Assembly: GCA_028707495.1 (NCBI GenBank)
Contig: JAQWAS010000003.1
Span: 47,711 to 111,710, forward strand
DNA length: 64,000 nt
DNA from: Patescibacteria group bacterium
Lineage (GTDB): Bacteria > Patescibacteriota > Patescibacteriia > UBA2591 > JAQWAS01
Direction of reading: 5' to 3'
Positions 18,612 through 47,564 of the stretch are shown one piece after another. Numbering within the stretch: the stretch's first letter is position 1; every line of letters starts with the position of its first letter. The notes below the pieces were generated by a model that was not told the DNA's origin, did not search any database, and was given only the letters and a program-made list of their open reading frames with translations. Position numbers and translations under genes: made by a program.

Positions 18612-19652
18612 ATGGATATATTTTCAATTATTATTATTTTAATTTTAATCGCTGGTTTTACAGCGCTTTTTTGGCAATTTAAAAAAAATCAACAACCAGA
18701 GGAAAAACCAGAATCAATGTTATTATTACAAAATCAACTAAGTGAGATGCGCAAAGAAGTTGATGGTAAATTAAGTGAATCAAGTCGTCAAATGCAGAAT
18801 CAGTTTACCCAAAGTTTAAATGTAATTAAAGGTGTAACTGAAAAGGTGGTTGAGTTGCAGGAAACAAATAAACAAGTTGTGGGTTTCACTGAACAATTAA
18901 AAAATTTAGAAAAGGTTTTAACCAATTCAAAGAATCGTGGTTCTTTGGGAGAAGCTGGATTAGAAATGATTTTAAATAATATTTTACCACCCCAAGCTTT
19001 TGAAATGCAGTATCACTTTAAAAACGGTGAAGCAGTCGATGCGGTTGTTAAAATTAAAGATAATTTATTGCCAGTTGATGCTAAATTTTCTTTAGAAAAT
19101 TATCGGCGCATTATTGATGAGACAGATCCGGAAAAGAAAAGTTTATTAGAAAAATCTTTTAAAGATGATTTAAAAAAACGCATTGATGAAACTGCTAAAT
19201 ATATTCGTCCACAAGAGGGGACACTTGATTTTGCTTTTATGTATATTCCAGCTGAAGGAATTTATTATGATTTATTAGTTAATGAGGTAGGTTCAATTAA
19301 AGCCAATACGCGTAGTTTAATTGATTATGCGTTTAATGAAAGAAAGGTTGTTATTGTTTCGCCAACGACCTTTGCTGCTTATTTACAAACTGTACTTCAG
19401 GGTTTGCGGGCTTTAAAAATAGAAAAAGATGCTAAAGAAATTCAAAAAAATGTTGAAAAATTACAAAAACATCTTTTAGCTTATGATGAGTATTTTAAAA
19501 AAGTTGGCAATAATTTAGCGACAACCGTCAATGCTTATAATTCAGCTGACAAGGAATTACAAAAGATTGATAAAGATGTGGTTAAAATCACGGGAGGAGA
19601 AAGTCAAGCTGAAATTTTACAACTTGATAAACCTAAATTAAAAGAGGAATAA
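18612..19652 (+). CDS. rmuC: DNA recombination protein RmuC
   Basis: N-terminal TM helix, coiled coil, RmuC core SLGEAGLEMILNNILP. Confidence 0.75.
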   Translation: MDIFSIIIILILIAGFTALFWQFKKNQQPEEKPESMLLLQNQLSEMRKEVDGKLSESSRQMQNQFTQSLNVIKGVTEKVVELQETNKQVVGFTEQLKNLEKVLTNSKNRGSLGEAGLEMILNNILPPQAFEMQYHFKNGEAVDAVVKIKDNLLPVDAKFSLENYRRIIDETDPEKKSLLEKSFKDDLKKRIDETAKYIRPQEGTLDFAFMYIPAEGIYYDLLVNEVGSIKANTRSLIDYAFNERKVVIVSPTTFAAYLQTVLQGLRALKIEKDAKEIQKNVEKLQKHLLAYDEYFKKVGNNLATTVNAYNSADKELQKIDKDVVKITGGESQAEILQLDKPKLKEE

Positions 19653-21465: not shown

Positions 21466-21560
21466 GCTGGCAATTGATAAAGACGTGATTAAAATAACAG
21501 ACGGCGAAGGTAATTTTGAAACTTTACAATTAGATAAACCTAAAATAAAAGAAGAGTAAT
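21466..21560 (+). pseudogene. Diverged duplicate of the rmuC 3' end (encoding ...DVIKITDGEGNFETLQLDKPKIKEE*). A copy of the rmuC terminator follows at about 21587-21615.
   Basis: About 75-80% nucleotide identity to 19569-19652. The terminator stem GGGGCTCCAcaaGGAGTCCC parallels the one at 19681. Confidence 0.6.
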
Positions 21561-22037: not shown

Positions 22038-22430
22038 AATATCTCCTTTTTTAAGTTGCGATTGTTTTTTGTTTGTATTGTCATCTTAGCGTTTTGTTGT
22101 AAACATGTCAAGAGTTGGGTGAATAGTTTGATCATCCCTTCTGACCGCCGAATCGTTTGCCAGCTGACCCGTCAGTAGACAGGATTCAGCGTTAAACGTT
22201 TCTCTCGCCGTCATTCCTGGCTCCCGCCCGCTGGCGGGCAGGTGACCGGGAATCCAGGGTAAAAAATAAGTATTTTATTTTAGAATAAGTATTGTTAAAT
22301 CTAAAAAGTATTTTTTAAAGCAAAATATCTATTAGCTAACCTTGGATCCCCACTTTCGTGAGGATGACGGAAAGAGAAGTGGGATGACTTTCCTACTCTT
22401 GACCTATTTTGAAGCTATGCTATAATATAA

Positions 22431-22457
22431 TTAGCACTCTAAGTAAGAGAGTGCTAA
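22431..22457 (+). promoter_or_regulatory. CIRCE operator (TTAGCACTC-N9-GAGTGCTAA), overlapping a sigma-A promoter (TTGACC 22399-22404, TATAAT 22421-22426)
   Basis: A perfect match to the CIRCE consensus directly upstream of hrcA. Confidence 0.9.
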
Positions 22458-22473
22458 AAGGAAATATAAAATT

Positions 22474-23163
22474 ATGGATCAAGAAAAAATGGCTTTATTG
22501 AGCCAAATAATTGCAGAACATATTCACAGCGCCAAACCAGTAGCGTCGCAGTTGATTGTGGATAAGTATGGTTTAAAAATGAGTTCAGCCACAATTCGCA
22601 ACCGAATGGCTGAATTAGAAGAGGAAGGTTATCTAACTCATCCATATACTTCAGGCGGAAGAATCCCGACCATCAAGGGTTATGATTTTTATATTAAAAA
22701 TTTGTTAGAAATTAAAAAAATTTCCAGTAAAGAAAAACAAGTTTTGGAAAAAATTAAAACAGATTTTCAAGATCAACGGGAAATTTTAAAAAATTTAGCT
22801 AAGGGTTTGGCAGAATTTTCACAGGGTTTAGTCTTTATTGCTTTTAAACCCTTAGATTTTTATTATACTGGTGTCGCTAATTTATTTAGCCAAGTCGAAT
22901 TTAGAGAATATAATTTAGTTTGTAATTTATCAGAAGTTATTGATCACTTTGATGAAGTTTTAGAAAATATTTTTGATCAGGTCACTGAACAGCCACAAAT
23001 TTTAATTGGTAATCAAAATCCCTTCGGTGAGGCTTGCGGTACGATTATTACAAAATATAATTTTAATTGCAACGATAGTTTGTTGGGAATTTTAGGGCCG
23101 ATGCGAATGGATTATGGTAAAAATTTAGGTTTAATTAAATATATCCAAGAGTTAATTAAATAA
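22474..23163 (+). CDS. hrcA: Heat-inducible transcription repressor HrcA, short at 229 aa
   Basis: N-terminal wHTH: QLIVDKYGLKMSSATIRNRMAELEEEGYLTHPYTSGGRIPT. Confidence 0.75.
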   Translation: MDQEKMALLSQIIAEHIHSAKPVASQLIVDKYGLKMSSATIRNRMAELEEEGYLTHPYTSGGRIPTIKGYDFYIKNLLEIKKISSKEKQVLEKIKTDFQDQREILKNLAKGLAEFSQGLVFIAFKPLDFYYTGVANLFSQVEFREYNLVCNLSEVIDHFDEVLENIFDQVTEQPQILIGNQNPFGEACGTIITKYNFNCNDSLLGILGPMRMDYGKNLGLIKYIQELIK

Positions 23164-23167
23164 TCTT

Positions 23168-23668
23168 ATGTCAAAAAAAGATAAATTATCAGTAGGGGTA
23201 GTGGATAAAGAATTACAACAGCAGATTAATGAATTAAAACAACAAGTCGAAGAAAATTTAAACGGCTGGAAAAGAGCTCAGGCAGATTATCAAAATTTAC
23301 AAAATGATTTTAATAAACAAAAATCGAGTTTAATCGAATTTGCCAATTTGGGTTTGATTATGGATTTATTGCCAATTTATGATAATTTTTTGAAAGCCAT
23401 GGAACATCTTCCGGTAGAGCAACAAGCGAGTGATTGGGTGATTGGTATTACCCATATTAAAAATCAATTACAAAATTTATTAAAAGAAAAACAAGTTGAA
23501 CCGATTCAATCGGTGGGAGAAAAATTTAATCCGGAATTGCACGAAGCGATTGGTCAAGAAGAACACGTGGATTTAGAAGATGAAATTATTGTTAAAGAGA
23601 TTCAAGCTGGTTATACTTTAAAAAATAAAGTTATTCGTCCAGCTAAGGTGATTGTTAATCAAAAATAA
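23168..23668 (+). CDS. grpE: Nucleotide exchange factor GrpE
   Basis: WKRAQADYQNLQND...coiled coil...four-helix bundle core. Confidence 0.85.
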   Translation: MSKKDKLSVGVVDKELQQQINELKQQVEENLNGWKRAQADYQNLQNDFNKQKSSLIEFANLGLIMDLLPIYDNFLKAMEHLPVEQQASDWVIGITHIKNQLQNLLKEKQVEPIQSVGEKFNPELHEAIGQEEHVDLEDEIIVKEIQAGYTLKNKVIRPAKVIVNQK

Positions 23669-23673
23669 ATCGC

Positions 23674-23797
23674 TGTCATTCTAAAGTGGATCCGCCAGCT
23701 GGCGGACGATTCGGCAGGCGGAACGATAGAATCCTGAGGGCAGATCTCTAAAACAATGGGATTCTATCGCTCCATTTCATTCCGCTCCAGAATGACC
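23674..23797. mobile_element. MITE-like element, variant A: termini TGTCATTCT...AGAATGAC, with internal palindromes
   Basis: Internal palindromes are CCGCCAGCTGGCGG and GATAGAATCC...GGATTCTATC. Confidence 0.5.
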
Positions 23798-23808
23798 GGT
23801 TTAAAAAG

Positions 23809-23930
23809 TGTCATCCTGAATTTATTTCAGGATCTGAAATCAGAATAAACGTTTCTTTAAAAAAGACACTCTAAGTGCCAACAGATTCTGAAACATCCTC
23901 CGATTTGGCGGACTAGAGTTCAGAATGACA
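23809..23930. mobile_element. MITE-like element, family B, about 122 bp: TGTCATCCTGAATTTATTTCAGGATC ... AGATTCTGAAACATCCTCCGATTTGGCGGACTAGAGTTCAGAATGACA
   Basis: A near-identical copy lies at 47443-47564 and a more diverged one at 34573-34674. Three tandem TTCAGRATGRCA motifs follow at 23920-23990. Confidence 0.65.
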
Positions 23931-24086
23931 GTTGTTTGTTCAGAATGGCAGTTGTCGGTTCAGGATGACAAGGAGTTATTTTAGGACGACAAAGGGTGGA
24001 TTTTTAATAATATTTTAATAAATAAAAAAATTAATTTTATTCGAACTAGCTCAAAGACATTTAAAGTCGGAGACTAGCGTCGAATC

Positions 24087-24527
24087 ATGATATCTATGTC
24101 AATAATCAAATGGAGGCCCATGTTCCCATTTTGGGATGAGGAAGACAAGCTTTTTGAAGACTTAACTCCAAGTCTTTATTCAAATGCTCAAAATTTTGTG
24201 CCAGCCATAGACGTTTATCAGACCAAAGACGATGTCGTGGTTGAAACTGCTTTGAGTGGAGTTAAGCCCGAGGATGTAGAAATTTCAATTGAAAATGATG
24301 TTTTAACTATCAAGGGTCAAGCAAAAAAAGAAACTGAAATTGATGAAAAAAATTATTACCGAAAAGAAATGCGCACTGGTAGTTTTCATCGTTCGGTAGT
24401 TTTACCAACACATGTTATTTCAGATAAGGCCGAGGCTACGTCCAAAGATGGCGTTTTAAAAATCGCTATTCCTAAAGCGCCTGAAAGCAAAATCAAAACT
24501 ATCAAAGTTAAAGTAGAAAAAAAATAA
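24087..24527 (+). CDS. Hsp20/alpha-crystallin small heat-shock protein. The start may be the internal ATG near 24120.
   Basis: VPAIDVYQTKDDVVVETALSGVKPEDVEISIENDVLTIKGQ. Confidence 0.8.
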   Translation: MISMSIIKWRPMFPFWDEEDKLFEDLTPSLYSNAQNFVPAIDVYQTKDDVVVETALSGVKPEDVEISIENDVLTIKGQAKKETEIDEKNYYRKEMRTGSFHRSVVLPTHVISDKAEATSKDGVLKIAIPKAPESKIKTIKVKVEKK

Positions 24528-24625
24528 ATTGTCATTATCCAAGTAATCTCATTTGATGGGATTACTTTGGGCTAGTAAATTAAAATTTAATTTACTAACC
24601 CGAAGTAAAATTAACTAATTATTAA

Positions 24626-26563
<1,938 letters not shown>

Positions 26564-33201: not shown

Positions 33202-34101
33202 ATGATAAAAATAATTCAAAAAAGAAAAATTTGGTTCAGCCTGTCAATTGTTTTAATAATTTTGAGTATTTTAAGTTTAATTTTTTGGGGTTTGCCATTA
33301 TCAATCGATTTTAAAGGCGGAAGCTTATTGGAAATTGGCTTCGAAGACGAGCGACCGAGTACCGGTGAAATTAAACAAACCTTAAATGATTTAGGTTTGG
33401 GCGAAATTCAGGTTCAACCAACAGGAGAGCAGGATATGATTTTAAGAATGTCAATTGCAACCGAAGATGATCATCAAAGGGTAATTGAGAAAATAAATCA
33501 AACCTATCAAGGAGTTGAAGAAAAACGTTTCGAATCAGTTGGTCCAATTATCGGTTCCGAATTAAAACAAAAAGCTATTTATGCTTTAATTGTCGCTGCG
33601 ATTTGTATTATTTTATATATTGCTTGGGCATTCAGACGCGTGTCTAAACCGGTGGCTTCATGGAAGTTTGGTATAGTTGCTATCATAGCTTTAGCGCATG
33701 ATATTTTAATTACTTTGGGCGTAATTTCCATTATTGCCCATTTTTCAACTGGCATAGAGATTGGCGTGGCTTTTATTGCGGCTTTATTAACTATTTTAGG
33801 TTATTCGGTTAATGACACGATCGTAGTTTTTGATCGTACGCGTGAGAATTTATTAAAACACTATGGTGAAGATTTTGAAGAAACAGTCAATATGAGTGTT
33901 AACCAGACCATTACACGTTCGGTCAATACTTCAATTACAACTTTATTGGCTTTATTAGCAATTTATATTTTTGGTGGAGAGTCAATTAAATATTTTGCTT
34001 TAACTTTGATTGTTGGTATTATTTCAGGTACTTATTCTTCAATTTTCTTAGCTAGTCCGTTGGTTGTGGTTTGGGAGAAGATGAGAAATAGAGGCATTTA
34101 A
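33202..34101 (+). CDS. secF: Protein translocase subunit SecF
   Basis: IDFKGGSLLEIGFE..., and TM bundle. Confidence 0.85.
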   Translation: MIKIIQKRKIWFSLSIVLIILSILSLIFWGLPLSIDFKGGSLLEIGFEDERPSTGEIKQTLNDLGLGEIQVQPTGEQDMILRMSIATEDDHQRVIEKINQTYQGVEEKRFESVGPIIGSELKQKAIYALIVAAICIILYIAWAFRRVSKPVASWKFGIVAIIALAHDILITLGVISIIAHFSTGIEIGVAFIAALLTILGYSVNDTIVVFDRTRENLLKHYGEDFEETVNMSVNQTITRSVNTSITTLLALLAIYIFGGESIKYFALTLIVGIISGTYSSIFLASPLVVVWEKMRNRGI

Positions 34102-34249
34102 ACATACAAAAATTTAAACATATAGAAGGCGACATTCTGGAATGTCGCCTTTATTAATATTATTTTCATATTGACAAGATTTTTATATATGTTACTATAA
34201 AGATAATGATTTTATTCATTGAAAAAACAAATTTTCTAAAGGAGGAAAA

Positions 34250-34471
34250 ATGGACGCTGAAGAAGCATTGAAAACAATTGACGCTTGGTGGGAATTTGGC
34301 GCTGACCGCCCCCCAGAAGAAATTACGCTAGAGGCCTGTAAAGTAATAATGACAACCTTTTCAGAGCGAAGTCCTGAATATGAAAGAGCAAAAAAAACAG
34401 CGTGTAAAATTCGAACTCATCCAAGTAAAATGTTAACCAGGGCAACTTTTGGAAAGGTTCGCTGTCCTTAA
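34250..34471 (+). CDS. Small hypothetical protein of 73 aa with a strong RBS (AGGAGGAAAAATGG). A terminator lies at 34493-34527.
   Basis: Track ORF. GC is higher than in the flanks. A hairpin CCTTGTtgtACAAGG plus T-run follows it. Confidence 0.4.
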   Translation: MDAEEALKTIDAWWEFGADRPPEEITLEACKVIMTTFSERSPEYERAKKTACKIRTHPSKMLTRATFGKVRCP

Positions 34472-34572
34472 GTGTTAAAATTTCAAAACACGAATAAGCT
34501 CCTTGTTGTACAAGGGGCTTTTTTATTTTTAGAAGGCCACACCGTTTTTACAATGTAATTCTGAGTTGTAGC

Positions 34573-34674
34573 TATCATCCCGAATTTATTTCAGGATCTT
34601 TAATTAAGCTAAACGTTTCTTGCTAGGACAAAGTACAAAGTATCAATAGATTCTGAAACAAATTCAGAATGACA
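34573..34674. mobile_element. MITE-like element, family B, diverged copy (TATCATCCCGAATTTATTTCAGGATC ... AGATTCTGAAACAAATTCAGAATGACA)
   Basis: It shares both termini and the internal hairpin with the copies at 23809 and 47443. Confidence 0.55.
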
Positions 34675-34736: not shown

Positions 34737-34769
34737 AACACTGGATTCCCGCCTATGCGGGAATGACAG
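34737..34769. repeat. Palindromic unit AACACTGGATTCCCGCCTATGCGGGAATGACAG, 3' of cysS (third copy of the GIY-YIG-flanking palindrome)
   Basis: It differs from 15758-15787 at a single position within the shared 30-bp core. Confidence 0.7.
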
Positions 34770-37169: not shown

Positions 37170-37245
37170 TAACATAAAAACATTTAAATATACAAACATT
37201 TAAACATTTAAACATTTAAACATAAAGACATTTAAATATAATATT
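37170..37245. repeat. Simple tandem repeat (CATTTAAA)n upstream of corA
   Basis: acatttaaacatttaaacatttaaacataaagacatttaaat. Confidence 0.7.
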
Positions 37246-45517: not shown

Positions 45518-45605
45518 GAATAACTAATAACTAACAACTAATAATTAATAATCAATATTTAATATTTAATATTTAATATTTAACATTTAACATTTAATAA
45601 AACAT

Positions 45606-45761: not shown

Positions 45762-45781
45762 TACGCTTAGTTTCTTTTTGT

Positions 45782-45817
45782 GCGGGTGTCGTATAGTGGT
45801 AGTACAGGGGTCTCCAA
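45782..45817 (+). pseudogene. Displaced 5' half of tRNA-Trp (positions 1-36, ending in the anticodon loop). The palindrome CCCGCCTTTCGCGAAAGGCGGG at 45819-45840 follows it.
   Basis: Identical to the first 36 nt of the intact tRNA-Trp at 46140. Confidence 0.7.
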
Positions 45818-45877
45818 TCCCGCCTTTCGCGAAAGGCGGGACGATTCTCAGCTTAATATTTTAAACAAAATGTTTAT

Positions 45878-46126
45878 ATGTATTCTGTTTATTTATTAAG
45901 AAGTTTAAAAGATAAAAATTTGTATATAGGTTCTACTTTTGATTTAAAATCTAGATATACTCAACATTTAGAAGGTAAGGTGATATCAACCAAAAATAGA
46001 AGACCATTAGAATTAATTTATTATGAAGCTTATAATGATAAATTATTAGCACAAGAAAGAGAACGAAAATTAAAACAATTTGGCTCATCTTATCGGGGAT
46101 TAATTAAAAGATTAAATATAAAATAA
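45878..46126 (+). CDS. Small GIY-YIG nuclease family protein (YhbQ/UPF0213-like)
   Basis: YSVYLLRSLKDKNLYIGSTFDLKSRYTQHLEGK...ELIYYEAYNDKLLAQERERKLK. Confidence 0.8.
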   Translation: MYSVYLLRSLKDKNLYIGSTFDLKSRYTQHLEGKVISTKNRRPLELIYYEAYNDKLLAQERERKLKQFGSSYRGLIKRLNIK

Positions 46127-46139
46127 TTAGTTAATATTT

Positions 46140-46213
46140 GCGGGTGTCGTATAGTGGTAGTACAGGGGTCTCCAAAACCTCTAGCGGGGGTTCGATTCCC
46201 TCCACCCGTGCCA
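46140..46213 (+). tRNA. tRNA-Trp (CCA)
   Basis: Acceptor GCGGGTG/CACCCGT. Anticodon loop CTCCAAA. T-loop TTCGATT. CCA encoded. Confidence 0.85.
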
Positions 46214-46237
46214 TAATTATTTAAGGGTTCTCACTCA

Positions 46238-46280
46238 GCGGGTGACCAGCCTCTAGCTGGGATTCCCTCCACCCGTGCCA
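46238..46280 (+). pseudogene. Degenerate, internally deleted tRNA-Trp copy (GCGGGTGAC..CCTCTAGCTGGGATTCCCTCCACCCGTGCCA)
   Basis: It matches the 3' part of tRNA-Trp but has a damaged T-arm. Confidence 0.5.
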
Positions 46281-46309: not shown

Positions 46310-47332
46310 ATGTTGAACTTAGACAATAAAAATAAAAAATTAATTTGGATTATTTTAGCGGTGGCGTTTTTGCCGATGTTTTTACAAAATAAATTTTTGC
46401 TTGGGCTGTTAATTGCTATTATAATTATTTATTTAATATTTAAAAAATTAAAAAACAAATCTATGGATAATCAACCCATTAATATAAGCAATTTTAAGGG
46501 TTTTAAAAATGCTAAGAAAATTTTATGGATAACCGTGCTGGTTGTTTTTGTTTTATGGTTGTTTTTGGCTTCAATTCAAATTGTCGATGCGGGCGAGACG
46601 GGAGTTTATTCTTTGTTTGGCAAGGTCAGCGACAATGAAAGATCATCAGGTTTCCATTTAATTATCCCCTTGGCTAAATTAACAAAAATGGGTATTCGGA
46701 CGGAAGAATATACGATGAGTATTATAAGTAACGAAGGTAAAAAAACTGGGGCAGACGCCATTACGGCTTTAACCAAAGAGGGTTTAAGCGTTGATTTAGA
46801 TATTACAGTTTTGTATCGTCTTAATGAAAATCAAGCTTCAGATGTTTATAAAAACGTAGGTTTAAATTACGAGGAAAAAATTATTCGACCAGCTATTCGC
46901 AGCACCATTCGTGAAGTTATAGCACAATACGAAGCTAAAGATATTTATTCAGAAAAAAGAGCTGAGGCAACGCAAGGCATTAAAATTAGTTTAGAGACTC
47001 AAATTAATCCATGTGGGATTATTATCGAAGAGGTCTTATTAAGAAATGTGGTTTTGCCAGCTAATTTAGCCAATTCAATTCAGGAAAAGCTTCAAGCAGA
47101 GCAGGAAGCTCAAAAATACGATTTCTTATTGCAAACAGAGAAAAAGGAAAAAGAACGTAAGATTATTGAAGCTGAAGGGCAGAGAGACTCTCAGGCAATT
47201 ATTAATCAAAGTTTAACCACTAATTATTTATATTATCAATATATTAAAGAGCTAGAAAATCGCGAAGGTACAATTTATGTGCCAACTAATCCAAGCACGG
47301 GCATGCCAATGTTTAGGGATGTTGGATACTAA
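46310..47332 (+). CDS. SPFH/Band-7 (prohibitin/HflK-like) membrane protein. The start is uncertain.
   Basis: Two N-terminal TM helices, then an SPFH core (VDAGETGVYSLFGKV...) and a coiled-coil tail. Confidence 0.7.
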   Translation: MLNLDNKNKKLIWIILAVAFLPMFLQNKFLLGLLIAIIIIYLIFKKLKNKSMDNQPINISNFKGFKNAKKILWITVLVVFVLWLFLASIQIVDAGETGVYSLFGKVSDNERSSGFHLIIPLAKLTKMGIRTEEYTMSIISNEGKKTGADAITALTKEGLSVDLDITVLYRLNENQASDVYKNVGLNYEEKIIRPAIRSTIREVIAQYEAKDIYSEKRAEATQGIKISLETQINPCGIIIEEVLLRNVVLPANLANSIQEKLQAEQEAQKYDFLLQTEKKEKERKIIEAEGQRDSQAIINQSLTTNYLYYQYIKELENREGTIYVPTNPSTGMPMFRDVGY

Positions 47333-47442
47333 AAAAAATTAAAATTTTAAATATCAAAAACTCCTCGTGTTGTGCGGGGAGTTTTTTGTAAAGGTGTCAT
47401 TGCGACTAGCCGATTTAGTAAGGAAGCAATTCTGTAAATTTG

Positions 47443-47564
47443 TGTCATCCTGAATTTATTTCAGGATCTATATTTAGAATAAACATTTTATTAAATAAAC
47501 GTTACAAGTATTATTAGATTCTGAAACATCCTCCGATTTGGCGGACTAGAGTTCAGAATGATAC
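47443..47564. mobile_element. MITE-like element, family B, nearly identical to 23809-23930
   Basis: Shared segments are TGTCATCCTGAATTTATTTCAGGATCT ... AGATTCTGAAACATCCTCCGATTTGGCGGACTAGAGTTCAGAATGA. Confidence 0.65.

Follow-up and report, generated by a model that had tools for sequence, protein, structure and literature searches.

The window analysed here is a 64-kb stretch of a Patescibacteria metagenome-assembled genome (MAG) with the locus tag PHS07_ and a GC content of ~32%, and it carries a small family of intergenic repeats of ~120 bp that are the subject of this report. Three homologous elements of 105-125 bp are present at 23809-23930, 47443-47564, and 34573-34674 (copies 1, 2, and 3, respectively), at every position given by the original prediction, which had described a dispersed family resembling miniature inverted-repeat transposable elements (MITEs) or repetitive extragenic palindromes (REPs). 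All copy counts refer to this 64-kb window, which is part of a contig listed as 117,913 bp. Copy 1 is located between grpE (23168-23668) and hsp20 (24087-24527), copy 2 is found 3' of an SPFH/Band_7 gene (46310-47332), and copy 3 is found 3' of a 73-aa open reading frame (ORF, 34250-34471). These neighbours had been named correctly; copies 2 and 3 are probably not simply parts of 3' untranslated regions, because they lie beyond a terminator-like hairpin and a T run, as judged by eye. A repeat search returned the three copies as two families, D7 for the left part (75-86% identity) and D13 for the right part. Each copy consists of two inverted arms separated by an AT-rich spacer, and the parts are listed below with selected folding energies as single-stranded DNA (ssDNA).

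23810..23834, plus strand: copy 1 left arm, GTC + ATCCTGAA-TTTAT-TTCAGGAT + C, CATCC type; ssDNA -6.2 kcal/mol, z -3.7
23835..23883, no strand: copy 1 spacer, AT-rich and RS-like; a homolog of the other two spacers
23884..23929, minus strand: copy 1 right arm, CATTC type; 26-nt loop at 23893-23918 with a small GC hairpin
47444..47468, plus strand: copy 2 left arm, with the same sequence as in copy 1
47469..47516, no strand: copy 2 spacer, used in the spacer comparison
47517..47562, minus strand: copy 2 right arm, with the same extended loop as copy 1; foot ATC
34574..34598, plus strand: copy 3 left arm; foot ATC; stem with one mismatch (ATCCCGAA / TTCAGGAT)
34599..34648, no strand: copy 3 spacer, used in the spacer comparison
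34649..34673, minus strand: copy 3 right arm, short form GTCATTCTGAATTTGTTTCAGAATC; ssDNA -5.4 kcal/mol, z -4.0

Each of the sequences that had been taken for terminal inverted repeats is a 25-nt self-contained hairpin, composed of a GTC foot, an 8-bp stem (AT[C/T]CTGAA / TTCAG[G/A]AT), a 5-nt loop, and a C. The perfect internal hairpin of the original prediction is present, with its description corrected to an 8-bp stem and a 5-nt loop (ATCCTGAA-TTTAT-TTCAGGAT). The left arms of copies 1-3 are always of the CATCC..GGATC form, and the right arms, read on their own strand, are of the CATTC..GAATC form. The right-arm loop of copies 1 and 2 is expanded to 26 nt and holds a small GC hairpin; the right arm of copy 3 is a short form without this 21-23-nt loop insert. 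The C directly 3' of the palindrome is found in 6/6 arms, and the GTC foot in 4/6 arms and in all of the canonical units described below, with a degenerate ATC foot in the copy 3 left arm and the copy 2 right arm. Folded as ssDNA, the short-loop arms have energies of -5.4 to -6.2 kcal/mol (z about -4), with the GTC and the C unpaired, and the copy 1 extended-loop right arm has -6.6 kcal/mol (z -1.9). The complete element can also form one long hairpin.

The end motif and its combinations are strongly over-represented in the window. The motif TTCAGRATGRCA, with at most one mismatch, has 12 matches against 1.05 expected, a count reached in 0/100 shuffles, and these matches include three tandem copies at 23919, 23939, and 23959 with a 20-nt period. 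The complete unit GTCATYCTGAA-N(4-30)-TTCAGRATC has 4 matches (0.00 expected), and the pattern GTCATYC..GRATCC has 5 (0.02 expected). Arm identity among the copies is 96-100%, and a stretch of 46 nt, loop insert included, is 100% identical between the copy 1 and copy 2 right arms. The spacers form a three-member family of AT-rich, mutually homologous sequences of 47-49 nt that are 63-65% identical (z 3.6-4.6 against shuffles). The homology of the three spacers, together with the near-identity of the arms (96-100%), indicates that the doublet was copied as a whole unit. The sequences suggest that the arms were afterwards conserved or homogenised, by selection or gene conversion, while the spacer drifted.

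The frame of these arms is that of a recently described class of nuclease sites. The Neisseria NTS, CGTCATTCCCGCGMAVGCGGGAATCYRG, has been generalised to Ssn-related motifs (SRMs), and SsnA, a 94-aa single-domain GIY-YIG protein, binds the hairpin solely as ssDNA, with no action on double-stranded DNA, on RNA or on the reverse strand, and its cut falls a few nucleotides 5' of the hairpin (Chenal et al. 2025, Nat Commun 16:2388, PMC11893778). Cleavage is governed by the three nucleotides that directly precede the palindrome, and binding depends most on the C that directly follows it (PMC11893778). The loop is not required and tolerates extension; a changed palindrome that still forms the hairpin leaves the Neisseria enzyme inactive (PMC11893778). 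Ssn homologs across bacterial phyla are typically flanked by SRMs, and the NTS-ssnA-NTS arrangement is widespread (PMC11893778). The degenerate pattern published for SRMs, HGTCWYN(0-2)YYVSBRHN(0-5)WNVSBRGN(0-2)RNCYNB, which is the authors' search expression and not a biochemical definition, has 3 matches in the window against 0.02 expected (15360-15387, 15760-15787, and 34741-34768). The first two flank a small GIY-YIG gene, giy1, and the third stands alone.

15440..15736, plus strand: giy1, 98-aa single-domain GIY-YIG protein, putative Ssn nuclease, MDD4607046.1, PF01541
15360..15387, plus strand: left SRM of the ssn cassette, TGTCATCCCCGCGTAGGCGGGGATCCAG, published SRM pattern; ssDNA -9.7 kcal/mol
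15760..15787, minus strand: right SRM of the ssn cassette, TGTCATTCCCGCGTAGGCGGGAATCCAG, 7 nt upstream of tRNA-Gln, published SRM pattern
34741..34768, minus strand: solo canonical SRM TGTCATTCCCGCATAGGCGGGAATCCAG, published degenerate SRM pattern

The product of giy1 is shorter than 150 aa and contains PF01541 over residues 6-79 (8.8e-16) and no other domain. It has 6909 homologs at E <= 1e-5, the best of which, at 60-70% identity, belong to Patescibacteria, Chloroflexota, Planctomycetota, Omnitrophota, and others; the homolog P0122 is 95% identical. Its NCBIfam match is below threshold, and its relatives in the PDB are UPF0213 proteins with weak E-values. The gene is bracketed by hairpins with their feet outward, GTCATCCCCGCGTAGGCGGGGATCC on the left and GTCATTCCCGCGTAGGCGGGAATCC on the right (minus strand), which have the same frame as the arms of the ~120-bp copies and a different stem. 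The right SRM is two positions off the Neisseria NTS consensus. Together, the short-loop arms and the giy1 flanks fold as ssDNA at -5.4 to -9.7 kcal/mol (z -3.7 to -4.6). The C/T asymmetry between the arms of the ~120-bp copies is also present in the giy1 flanks, and the frame GTC-AT[C/T]C-stem-loop-stem-G[G/A]AT-C is common to the arms of copies 1-3, the giy1 flanks, and other intergenic hairpins of the window. As for published SRMs, the arms of copies 1-3 are hairpin-forming imperfect palindromes of about 20-50 nt, here with 8-bp stems and 5-nt or 26-nt loops, and an ssn-type gene is associated with such hairpins in the window, since giy1 is flanked on both sides. The earlier suggestion that one machinery acts on both the repeats and the giy1-flanking palindromes is very probably right, given that the GTCATYC/GRATGAC core is both the frame flanking giy1 and the published SRM.

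The hairpin unit with the CTGAA stem is not confined to the window, a restriction that would have spoken against the original prediction: an exact-pattern scan, with one genome per species, placed its arms at >=120 loci. Among the matches listed, to which all counts in this paragraph apply, the taxa are candidate phyla radiation (CPR) groups, Bacteroidota, Alpha- and Gammaproteobacteria, Spirochaetota, Elusimicrobiota, Melainabacteria, and Firmicutes. A unit finder (GTCAT[CT]C and a stem of >=7 bp) run on 866 kb of these sequences returned 184 units against 0.4 in shuffles. The C after the palindrome is present in 37/37 partner units whose stem was not imposed by the scan, and T or C precedes the GTC in 166/184 units. 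Neighbouring units within 300 bp are convergent, with their feet outward, in 27 cases, divergent in 4, and tandem in 13. A CATCC arm is paired with a CATTC arm in 19 of the 27 convergent pairs (expected about 12; binomial p = 0.007), and the two arms have different stems in 10/27. The combination of a loop-extended CATTC arm with a short CATCC arm recurs in unrelated taxa (loci L007, L010, L015, and L100), and GIY-YIG homologs adjoin CTGAA-type units in L019 and L051, with an apparently truncated GIY-YIG ORF beside the unit in L019. The architecture seen in the window is therefore a general property of the CTGAA hairpin class. At another locus, L046 (2261-2716, in a Nomurabacteria MAG), a feet-outward CTGAA pair encloses a 138-aa ORF that does not look like GIY-YIG and by eye resembles nucleoside 2-deoxyribosyltransferase-like proteins, so SRM pairs may bracket other cargo.

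An accumulation of these hairpins lies in the heat-shock operon, where the second variant and the three tandem end-motifs noted earlier between grpE and hsp20 are confirmed in the sequence. In addition to copy 1, the stack contains the following parts.

23675..23734, plus strand: left arm of variant doublet v1, SRM-like GTCATTCT...AGAATCC, with the GC palindrome TCCGCCAGCTGGCGGA inside its long loop; frame read directly
23759..23796, minus strand: right arm of variant doublet v1, GTCATTCTGGAGCGGAATGAAATGGAGCGATAGAATCC, pattern GTCATYC..GRATCC
23939-23950 and 23959-23970, minus strand: two orphan 5' half-sites (foot and left half-stem), with a 20-nt period, upstream of the copy 1 right arm

The stack at 23674-23970 is thus a small array of doublet v1, doublet copy 1, and two orphan half-sites; complete v1 folds as RNA at -53 kcal/mol (z -5.0). 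The spacer between grpE and hsp20 measures 418 bp in the window and 67-73 bp, without such a hairpin, in relatives that keep the order hrcA-grpE-hsp20-dnaK, and the stack is accordingly extra DNA. The closest available relatives beyond a contig of the same species have GrpE proteins that are 52-53% identical, which makes this a deep comparison. A relaxed hairpin search at the orthologous loci of the relatives gave only noise. These distant relatives do not keep the elements in position, as they would have done in the alternative foreseen by the original prediction, a conserved regulatory RNA. Within the species, the metagenome contig L140 is 99% identical and lacks 41 nt, namely the loop insert and one 20-nt half-site repeat. 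The short-read assemblies L001 and L205 terminate inside arms, as is expected of a multi-copy repeat. The complete ~120-bp composite was found elsewhere only in the same organism (L001 and L140) and in weak partial relatives (L132 and L169); the recovery of TAAACRTTT in L169 is partly circular, as this sequence was imposed by the metagenome search pattern. All other matches of the composite search are the 25-nt arm alone, and the interior is lineage-specific.

Orphan half-sites, consisting of GTCATYC and the left half-stem, are not peculiar to the stack. Among the matches listed, they precede a complete unit by 14-25 nt in seven unrelated taxa (L031, L042, L063, L089, L102, L107, and the window at 23939-23970), and half-site copies are located upstream of 13 units and downstream of 4. 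One suggestion is that this stutter may be produced by slippage or repair at the nuclease cut site.

Taken together, the ~120-bp repeats are probably inverted, feet-outward pairs of SRM/NTS-type hairpins around an AT-rich spacer of ~48 bp, multiplied as whole units. That the arms themselves are SRM-type Ssn sites is, from their sequence, highly likely. The repeats are an analogue of a single dRS3-RS-dRS3 unit (NIME) of Neisseria and have the layout of the SRM-ssn-SRM cassette at 15360-15787 minus the gene; this is a known system in a new host, a Patescibacteria genome, and not a new kind of mobile element. As in the published SRM/Ssn system, an unpaired GTC stands 5' of the palindrome, AT..AT forms the base of the stem, and C follows immediately 3'; a single-domain GIY-YIG gene of ~94-98 aa lies between feet-outward hairpins; and the units are intergenic and clustered, with variable, extendable loops and a cross-phylum distribution. 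The differences are the AT-richer stem of the ~120-bp family (CTGAA/TTCAG), the host, a Patescibacteria MAG from a group that is unnamed in the main text of PMC11893778, and the copying of the doublet as a unit with a homologous spacer.

Several observations weigh against this interpretation. The arms of copies 1-3 do not match the published SRM pattern, for which the CTGAA stem is too AT-rich, although they keep every other element of the SRM frame. No GIY-YIG (ssn) gene flanked by CTGAA units lies within the 64 kb, and giy1, whose own flanks have CCCGC stems, may not act on the CTGAA arms because the Neisseria enzyme is specific for the stem sequence; this is the main caveat. In two of the six arms, the foot reads ATC and not GTC. 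The nearest relatives with an "empty" grpE-hsp20 spacer are as distant as their GrpE identities of 52-53% indicate, and the only clean polymorphism is an indel rather than the presence or absence of a whole doublet.

The classification of the repeats as a MITE/REP-like family is borne out in that they are dispersed and REP-like, and it fails for a classical MITE, that is, a deletion derivative of an insertion sequence (IS) with a DDE-type transposase that is moved in trans and leaves target-site duplications. The size of ~120 bp, imperfect terminal inverted repeats of 25-27 bp, an AT-rich interior, the intergenic placement of three dispersed copies, and the folding of the complete element into a long hairpin would all suit such an element, and all but the folding are also features of the Correia-type MITEs. 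However, inspection of the flanks of copies 1-3 revealed no consistent direct repeat, and Pfam scans of ~60 ORFs across the 64 kb detected housekeeping genes, with giy1 and a second GIY-YIG gene, giy2, as the only mobile-type nucleases, and no transposase, recombinase or Y1_Tnp domain; no parent IS was found in the window. The supposed terminal repeats are autonomous SRM-frame hairpins whose stems differ within 10 of the 27 pairs, which a transposase binding terminal repeats does not explain, and the 25-nt arm is found in many phyla, whereas the interior is specific to the lineage. A classical MITE is thus highly improbable. The doublets could alternatively be REPIN-like pairs of REPs mobilised by a RAYT, an IS200-like Y1/HUH enzyme whose gene would lie in another part of the genome. 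The REPIN layout is indeed that of short extragenic hairpins that have a conserved 5' head and are paired in inverted orientation around a spacer, and the authors of the Ssn study themselves draw the parallel with REP, BIME, and IS200/IS605 (PMC11893778). In the present family, the conserved head is GTC with a 3' C and not of the GTAG type, and the gene flanked by hairpins in the window, L019, and L051 is GIY-YIG rather than a Y1 transposase, with no Y1_Tnp domain among the ~60 ORFs scanned. REPs carry a GTAG-type head. Mobilisation by a RAYT is accordingly a most improbable origin of these pairs. The REP/REPIN/BIME-RAYT and IS200/IS605 systems nevertheless share with the window extragenic hairpins with an unpaired head, an inverted doublet that multiplies, an enzyme gene flanked by hairpins, and recognition of ssDNA. 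They differ from it in the enzyme, Y1/HUH against GIY-YIG, in the sequence of the head, and, for IS200/IS605, in that both ends are read on one strand whereas the hairpins here are on opposite strands; Ssn is not known to transpose DNA.

A role at the RNA level, as a terminator, mRNA stabiliser, processing site or small RNA that tunes, for example, grpE against hsp20, and with the link to a DNA nuclease as a coincidence, is suggested by the location of the elements 3' of genes, with one stack inside the hrcA-grpE-hsp20-dnaK operon, by RNA folds that are more stable than shuffles (z -2.8 to -6.1), and by G-U pairs that let copy 3 fold better as its minus strand (-33.3 vs -20.3 kcal/mol). This preference for one strand is inconsistent among the copies, though, and the arms occur in both orientations, with an unpaired GTC and C that fit the needs of a DNA enzyme, the Neisseria form of which does not bind RNA. 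At the Rfam gathering thresholds, the whole window yields only tRNAs, and even at E <= 1 the region 23600-24100 gives no family other than chance-level snoRNA and miRNA matches. No plus-strand terminator-like site is predicted in 23100-24700, and the two on the minus strand (1.0 expected) are at chance level. Copies 2 and 3 are already beyond terminator-like hairpins with T runs by eye, and relatives with the same operon lack the elements. A primary function in RNA is therefore quite unlikely; a secondary RNA effect inside the heat-shock operon can coexist with the pairs being SRM-type doublets. Finally, each doublet could be an independent relic, a separate SRM-ssn-SRM cassette that has lost its GIY-YIG gene. 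The doublets share with the giy1 cassette the outward feet and the combination of one CATCC with one CATTC arm, the leader and trailer of giy1 (about 55 + 25 nt) come near the spacer length, and L019 has its apparently truncated GIY-YIG ORF beside a CTGAA unit. On the other hand, the three spacers are mutually homologous, by eye unlike the giy1 leader and trailer, and at 47-49 nt too short for coding remnants, and the 46-nt identity of the copy 1 and copy 2 right arms, loop insert included, indicates copying or conversion between doublets, all of which makes separate gene losses very unlikely.

The reading as SRM-type doublets also brings the family close to the NIMEs, which are dRS3-RS-dRS3 units or arrays in which hairpin-forming inverted repeats bracket repeats of ~50-150 bp; dRS3 is ATTCCC-N8-GGGAAT, and NIMEs were stated in 2007 to be absent outside Neisseria (Bentley et al. 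2007, PMC1797815). In both cases, short hairpins surround lower-GC repeat families, represented here by the three-member spacer family, and arrays of strain-variable length stand beside genes, as in the two-unit stack at 23674-23970 with the 41-nt indel of L140. Unlike in NIMEs, the arrays of the window are tiny (2 units), and dRS3 is fitted only by canonical SRMs, at 15764-15783 and, by our reading, at 34745-34764. The palindrome of the right SRM of giy1, ATTCCCGCCTACGCGGGAAT, literally fits dRS3, whereas the arms of copies 1-3 (ATCCTGAA..TTCAGGAT and ATTCTGAA..TTCAGAAT) do not.

A mechanism can be proposed by analogy with the Neisseria enzyme. When the DNA becomes single-stranded, as lagging-strand template, as incoming transforming DNA or during repair, the arms would fold into 8-bp hairpins. 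A small GIY-YIG nuclease of the Ssn family, which may be giy1 or, for the CTGAA stem, a paralogue elsewhere in the genome, would bind the hairpin, with a requirement, as in Neisseria, for the C 3' of the palindrome, and would cut a few nucleotides 5' of the hairpin in dependence on the GTC foot. With the arms in inverted orientation, each strand would offer one site for cleavage, at an outer edge of the element. The doublet would have multiplied in this lineage as a whole unit that landed in intergenic DNA, and the loop inserts and 20-nt tandem half-site stutters would have arisen at the cut or in the hairpin region. Multiplication may be a by-product of Ssn nicking followed by repair or recombination, rather than true transposition. 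That Ssn activity drives the spread of the doublets is proposed only tentatively. A bolder version, in which SRM doublets are true non-autonomous mobile elements whose two outward hairpins are nicked by Ssn on opposite strands and which are copied to new intergenic sites, appears unlikely. If it were true, the half-site stutters would be footprints of an Ssn-driven copying reaction that also serves SRM-gene-SRM cassettes, and Ssn would be the enzyme of an unrecognised cross-phylum class of ssDNA-hairpin transposons, parallel to RAYT/REPIN and built on the GIY-YIG fold.

Further hairpin units of the same or a similar frame are found in the window, the last two being recognised by eye.

22210..22368, no strand: feet-outward doublet upstream of hrcA, 159 bp, arms with different stems and an AT-rich spacer; also present in L001
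22210-22255, plus strand: left arm of the hrcA-side doublet, with a long loop
22344-22368, minus strand: right arm of the hrcA-side doublet, GTCATCCTCACGAAAGTGGGGATCC
47396..47432, plus strand: possible degenerate long-loop unit GTCATTGCGA...GCAATTC, with a 5-bp stem and T, not C, after the palindrome
15252..15297, plus strand: possible degenerate long-loop unit GTCATTCTGGAGC...AGAATCC, with only a 5-bp stem, upstream of the ssn cassette

The unit at 47396..47432 is placed after the terminator-like hairpin and T run downstream of the SPFH gene. Just after tRNA-Thr, the segment 45486-45525, GTCGCCCGCCAAATCGGCGGACGGGTGGCCCCAGAATAAC, shares CCGCCAAATCGG with the right-arm loop insert of copies 1 and 2 and ends in CCAGAATAAC, which resembles the foot of v1; it may be another decayed unit.

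Two contigs from other assemblies have junctions at hairpins of the window. The JGI contig L203 is 99.8% identical to window positions 15360-16404, beginning exactly at the T before the GTC of the giy1 left SRM; upstream of this point it contains 562 nt of unrelated sequence with a different gene, and the site is either a rearrangement breakpoint at the foot of the hairpin or a chimera. L206, a second contig of the L203 sample, likewise breaks at a repeat, in this case a tRNA T-arm. In the ENA contig L204 (715 bp), 432 bp are 100% identical to window positions 34235-34666 and both flanks are different. The shared part runs from a ribosome-binding site through the 73-aa ORF and the terminator-like hairpin into copy 3, most of which it includes, with the right junction inside the right-arm stem, and the upstream part holds the end of a GC-richer ORF that by eye resembles the C-terminus of a ComM/Mg-chelatase-type protein. 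The junctions of L203 and L204 could be real rearrangements or horizontal gene transfer, or assembly chimeras, and they are not counted as evidence of mobility.

The second GIY-YIG gene of the window, giy2, encodes 82 aa (45878-46126); within 45781-46280, it is flanked on one side by 37 nt that exactly copy the 5' half of tRNA-Trp and on the other by the intact tRNA-Trp. The 5'-half copy ends right after the anticodon loop (...CTCCAA) and is followed by the hairpin TCCCGCCTTTCGCGAAAGGCGGGA and then by CGATTC; a decayed tRNA-Trp 3' half is found downstream of the intact tRNA-Trp. The loci considered for giy2 were L206, L207, and L208-L214. The upstream arrangement is also present in two assemblies, of which L207 matches throughout and L206 is 98% identical and diverges inside the T-arm of the intact tRNA-Trp. 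The gene has 179 homologs, and in 4/4 further independent Patescibacteria loci, giy2 homologs directly adjoin tRNA-Trp(CCA), with different neighbouring protein genes. The left boundary, consisting of the tRNA-Trp 5' half, a GC hairpin, and CGATTCC, recurs in L213 and L214, and the gene-proximal fragment of L213 is closer to the tRNA-Trp of the window (33/36) than to the resident tRNA-Trp; it looks foreign, like flanking sequence carried along during transfer. These comparisons suggest that giy2 is a free-standing GIY-YIG element associated with tRNA-Trp, and it may be homing-like and target tRNA-Trp. It is loosely similar to T4 SegB, which sits in a phage tRNA cluster, and no description of a tRNA-Trp-associated GIY-YIG element was found in the literature searched.

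Several other features of the window deserve mention. The 3' end of rmuC (19566-19652) has an 87-bp copy with 79% identity at 21473-21559, and the two bracket a GC-richer (~40%) segment of 1.8 kb that looks like an insertion at the rmuC end. A minus-strand ORF of 533 aa in this segment comprises seven tandem repeats of 174 bp and a Por_Secre_tail domain for sorting by the type IX secretion system (T9SS), which is odd for Patescibacteria. Runs of 8-nt AT-rich tandem repeats of the ACATTTAA / ATATTTAA type (family D4) are located in intergenic DNA upstream of genes at 37174-37244, 45540-45600, and 34088-34126. A canonical CIRCE-like operator, TTAGCACTC-N9-GAGTGCTAA, is present upstream of hrcA at 22427-22453, and no comparable site is visible upstream of hsp20, which is separated from grpE by the 418-bp insertion.

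The SRM/Ssn system has been known since 2025 and the NIMEs since 2000-2007. The novelty here is confined to the Patescibacteria instance, a very widespread stem class missed by the published pattern, evidence for the doublet as the copied unit, the half-site stutter, and the conserved CATCC/CATTC asymmetry. SRMs are probably more numerous than published counts state, because the search pattern misses the CTGAA stem class, which is present at >=120 loci in many phyla. In metagenome assemblies, SRM hairpins also account for many contig breaks and spurious small ORFs. The pairing of a short CATCC arm with an often loop-extended CATTC arm, together with the stutter, provides signatures for testing whether Ssn spreads its own sites. 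The Ssn/SRM system extends into the ultra-small Patescibacteria, which are thought to depend heavily on DNA uptake, and a nuclease that restricts single-stranded incoming DNA could therefore matter to these organisms.

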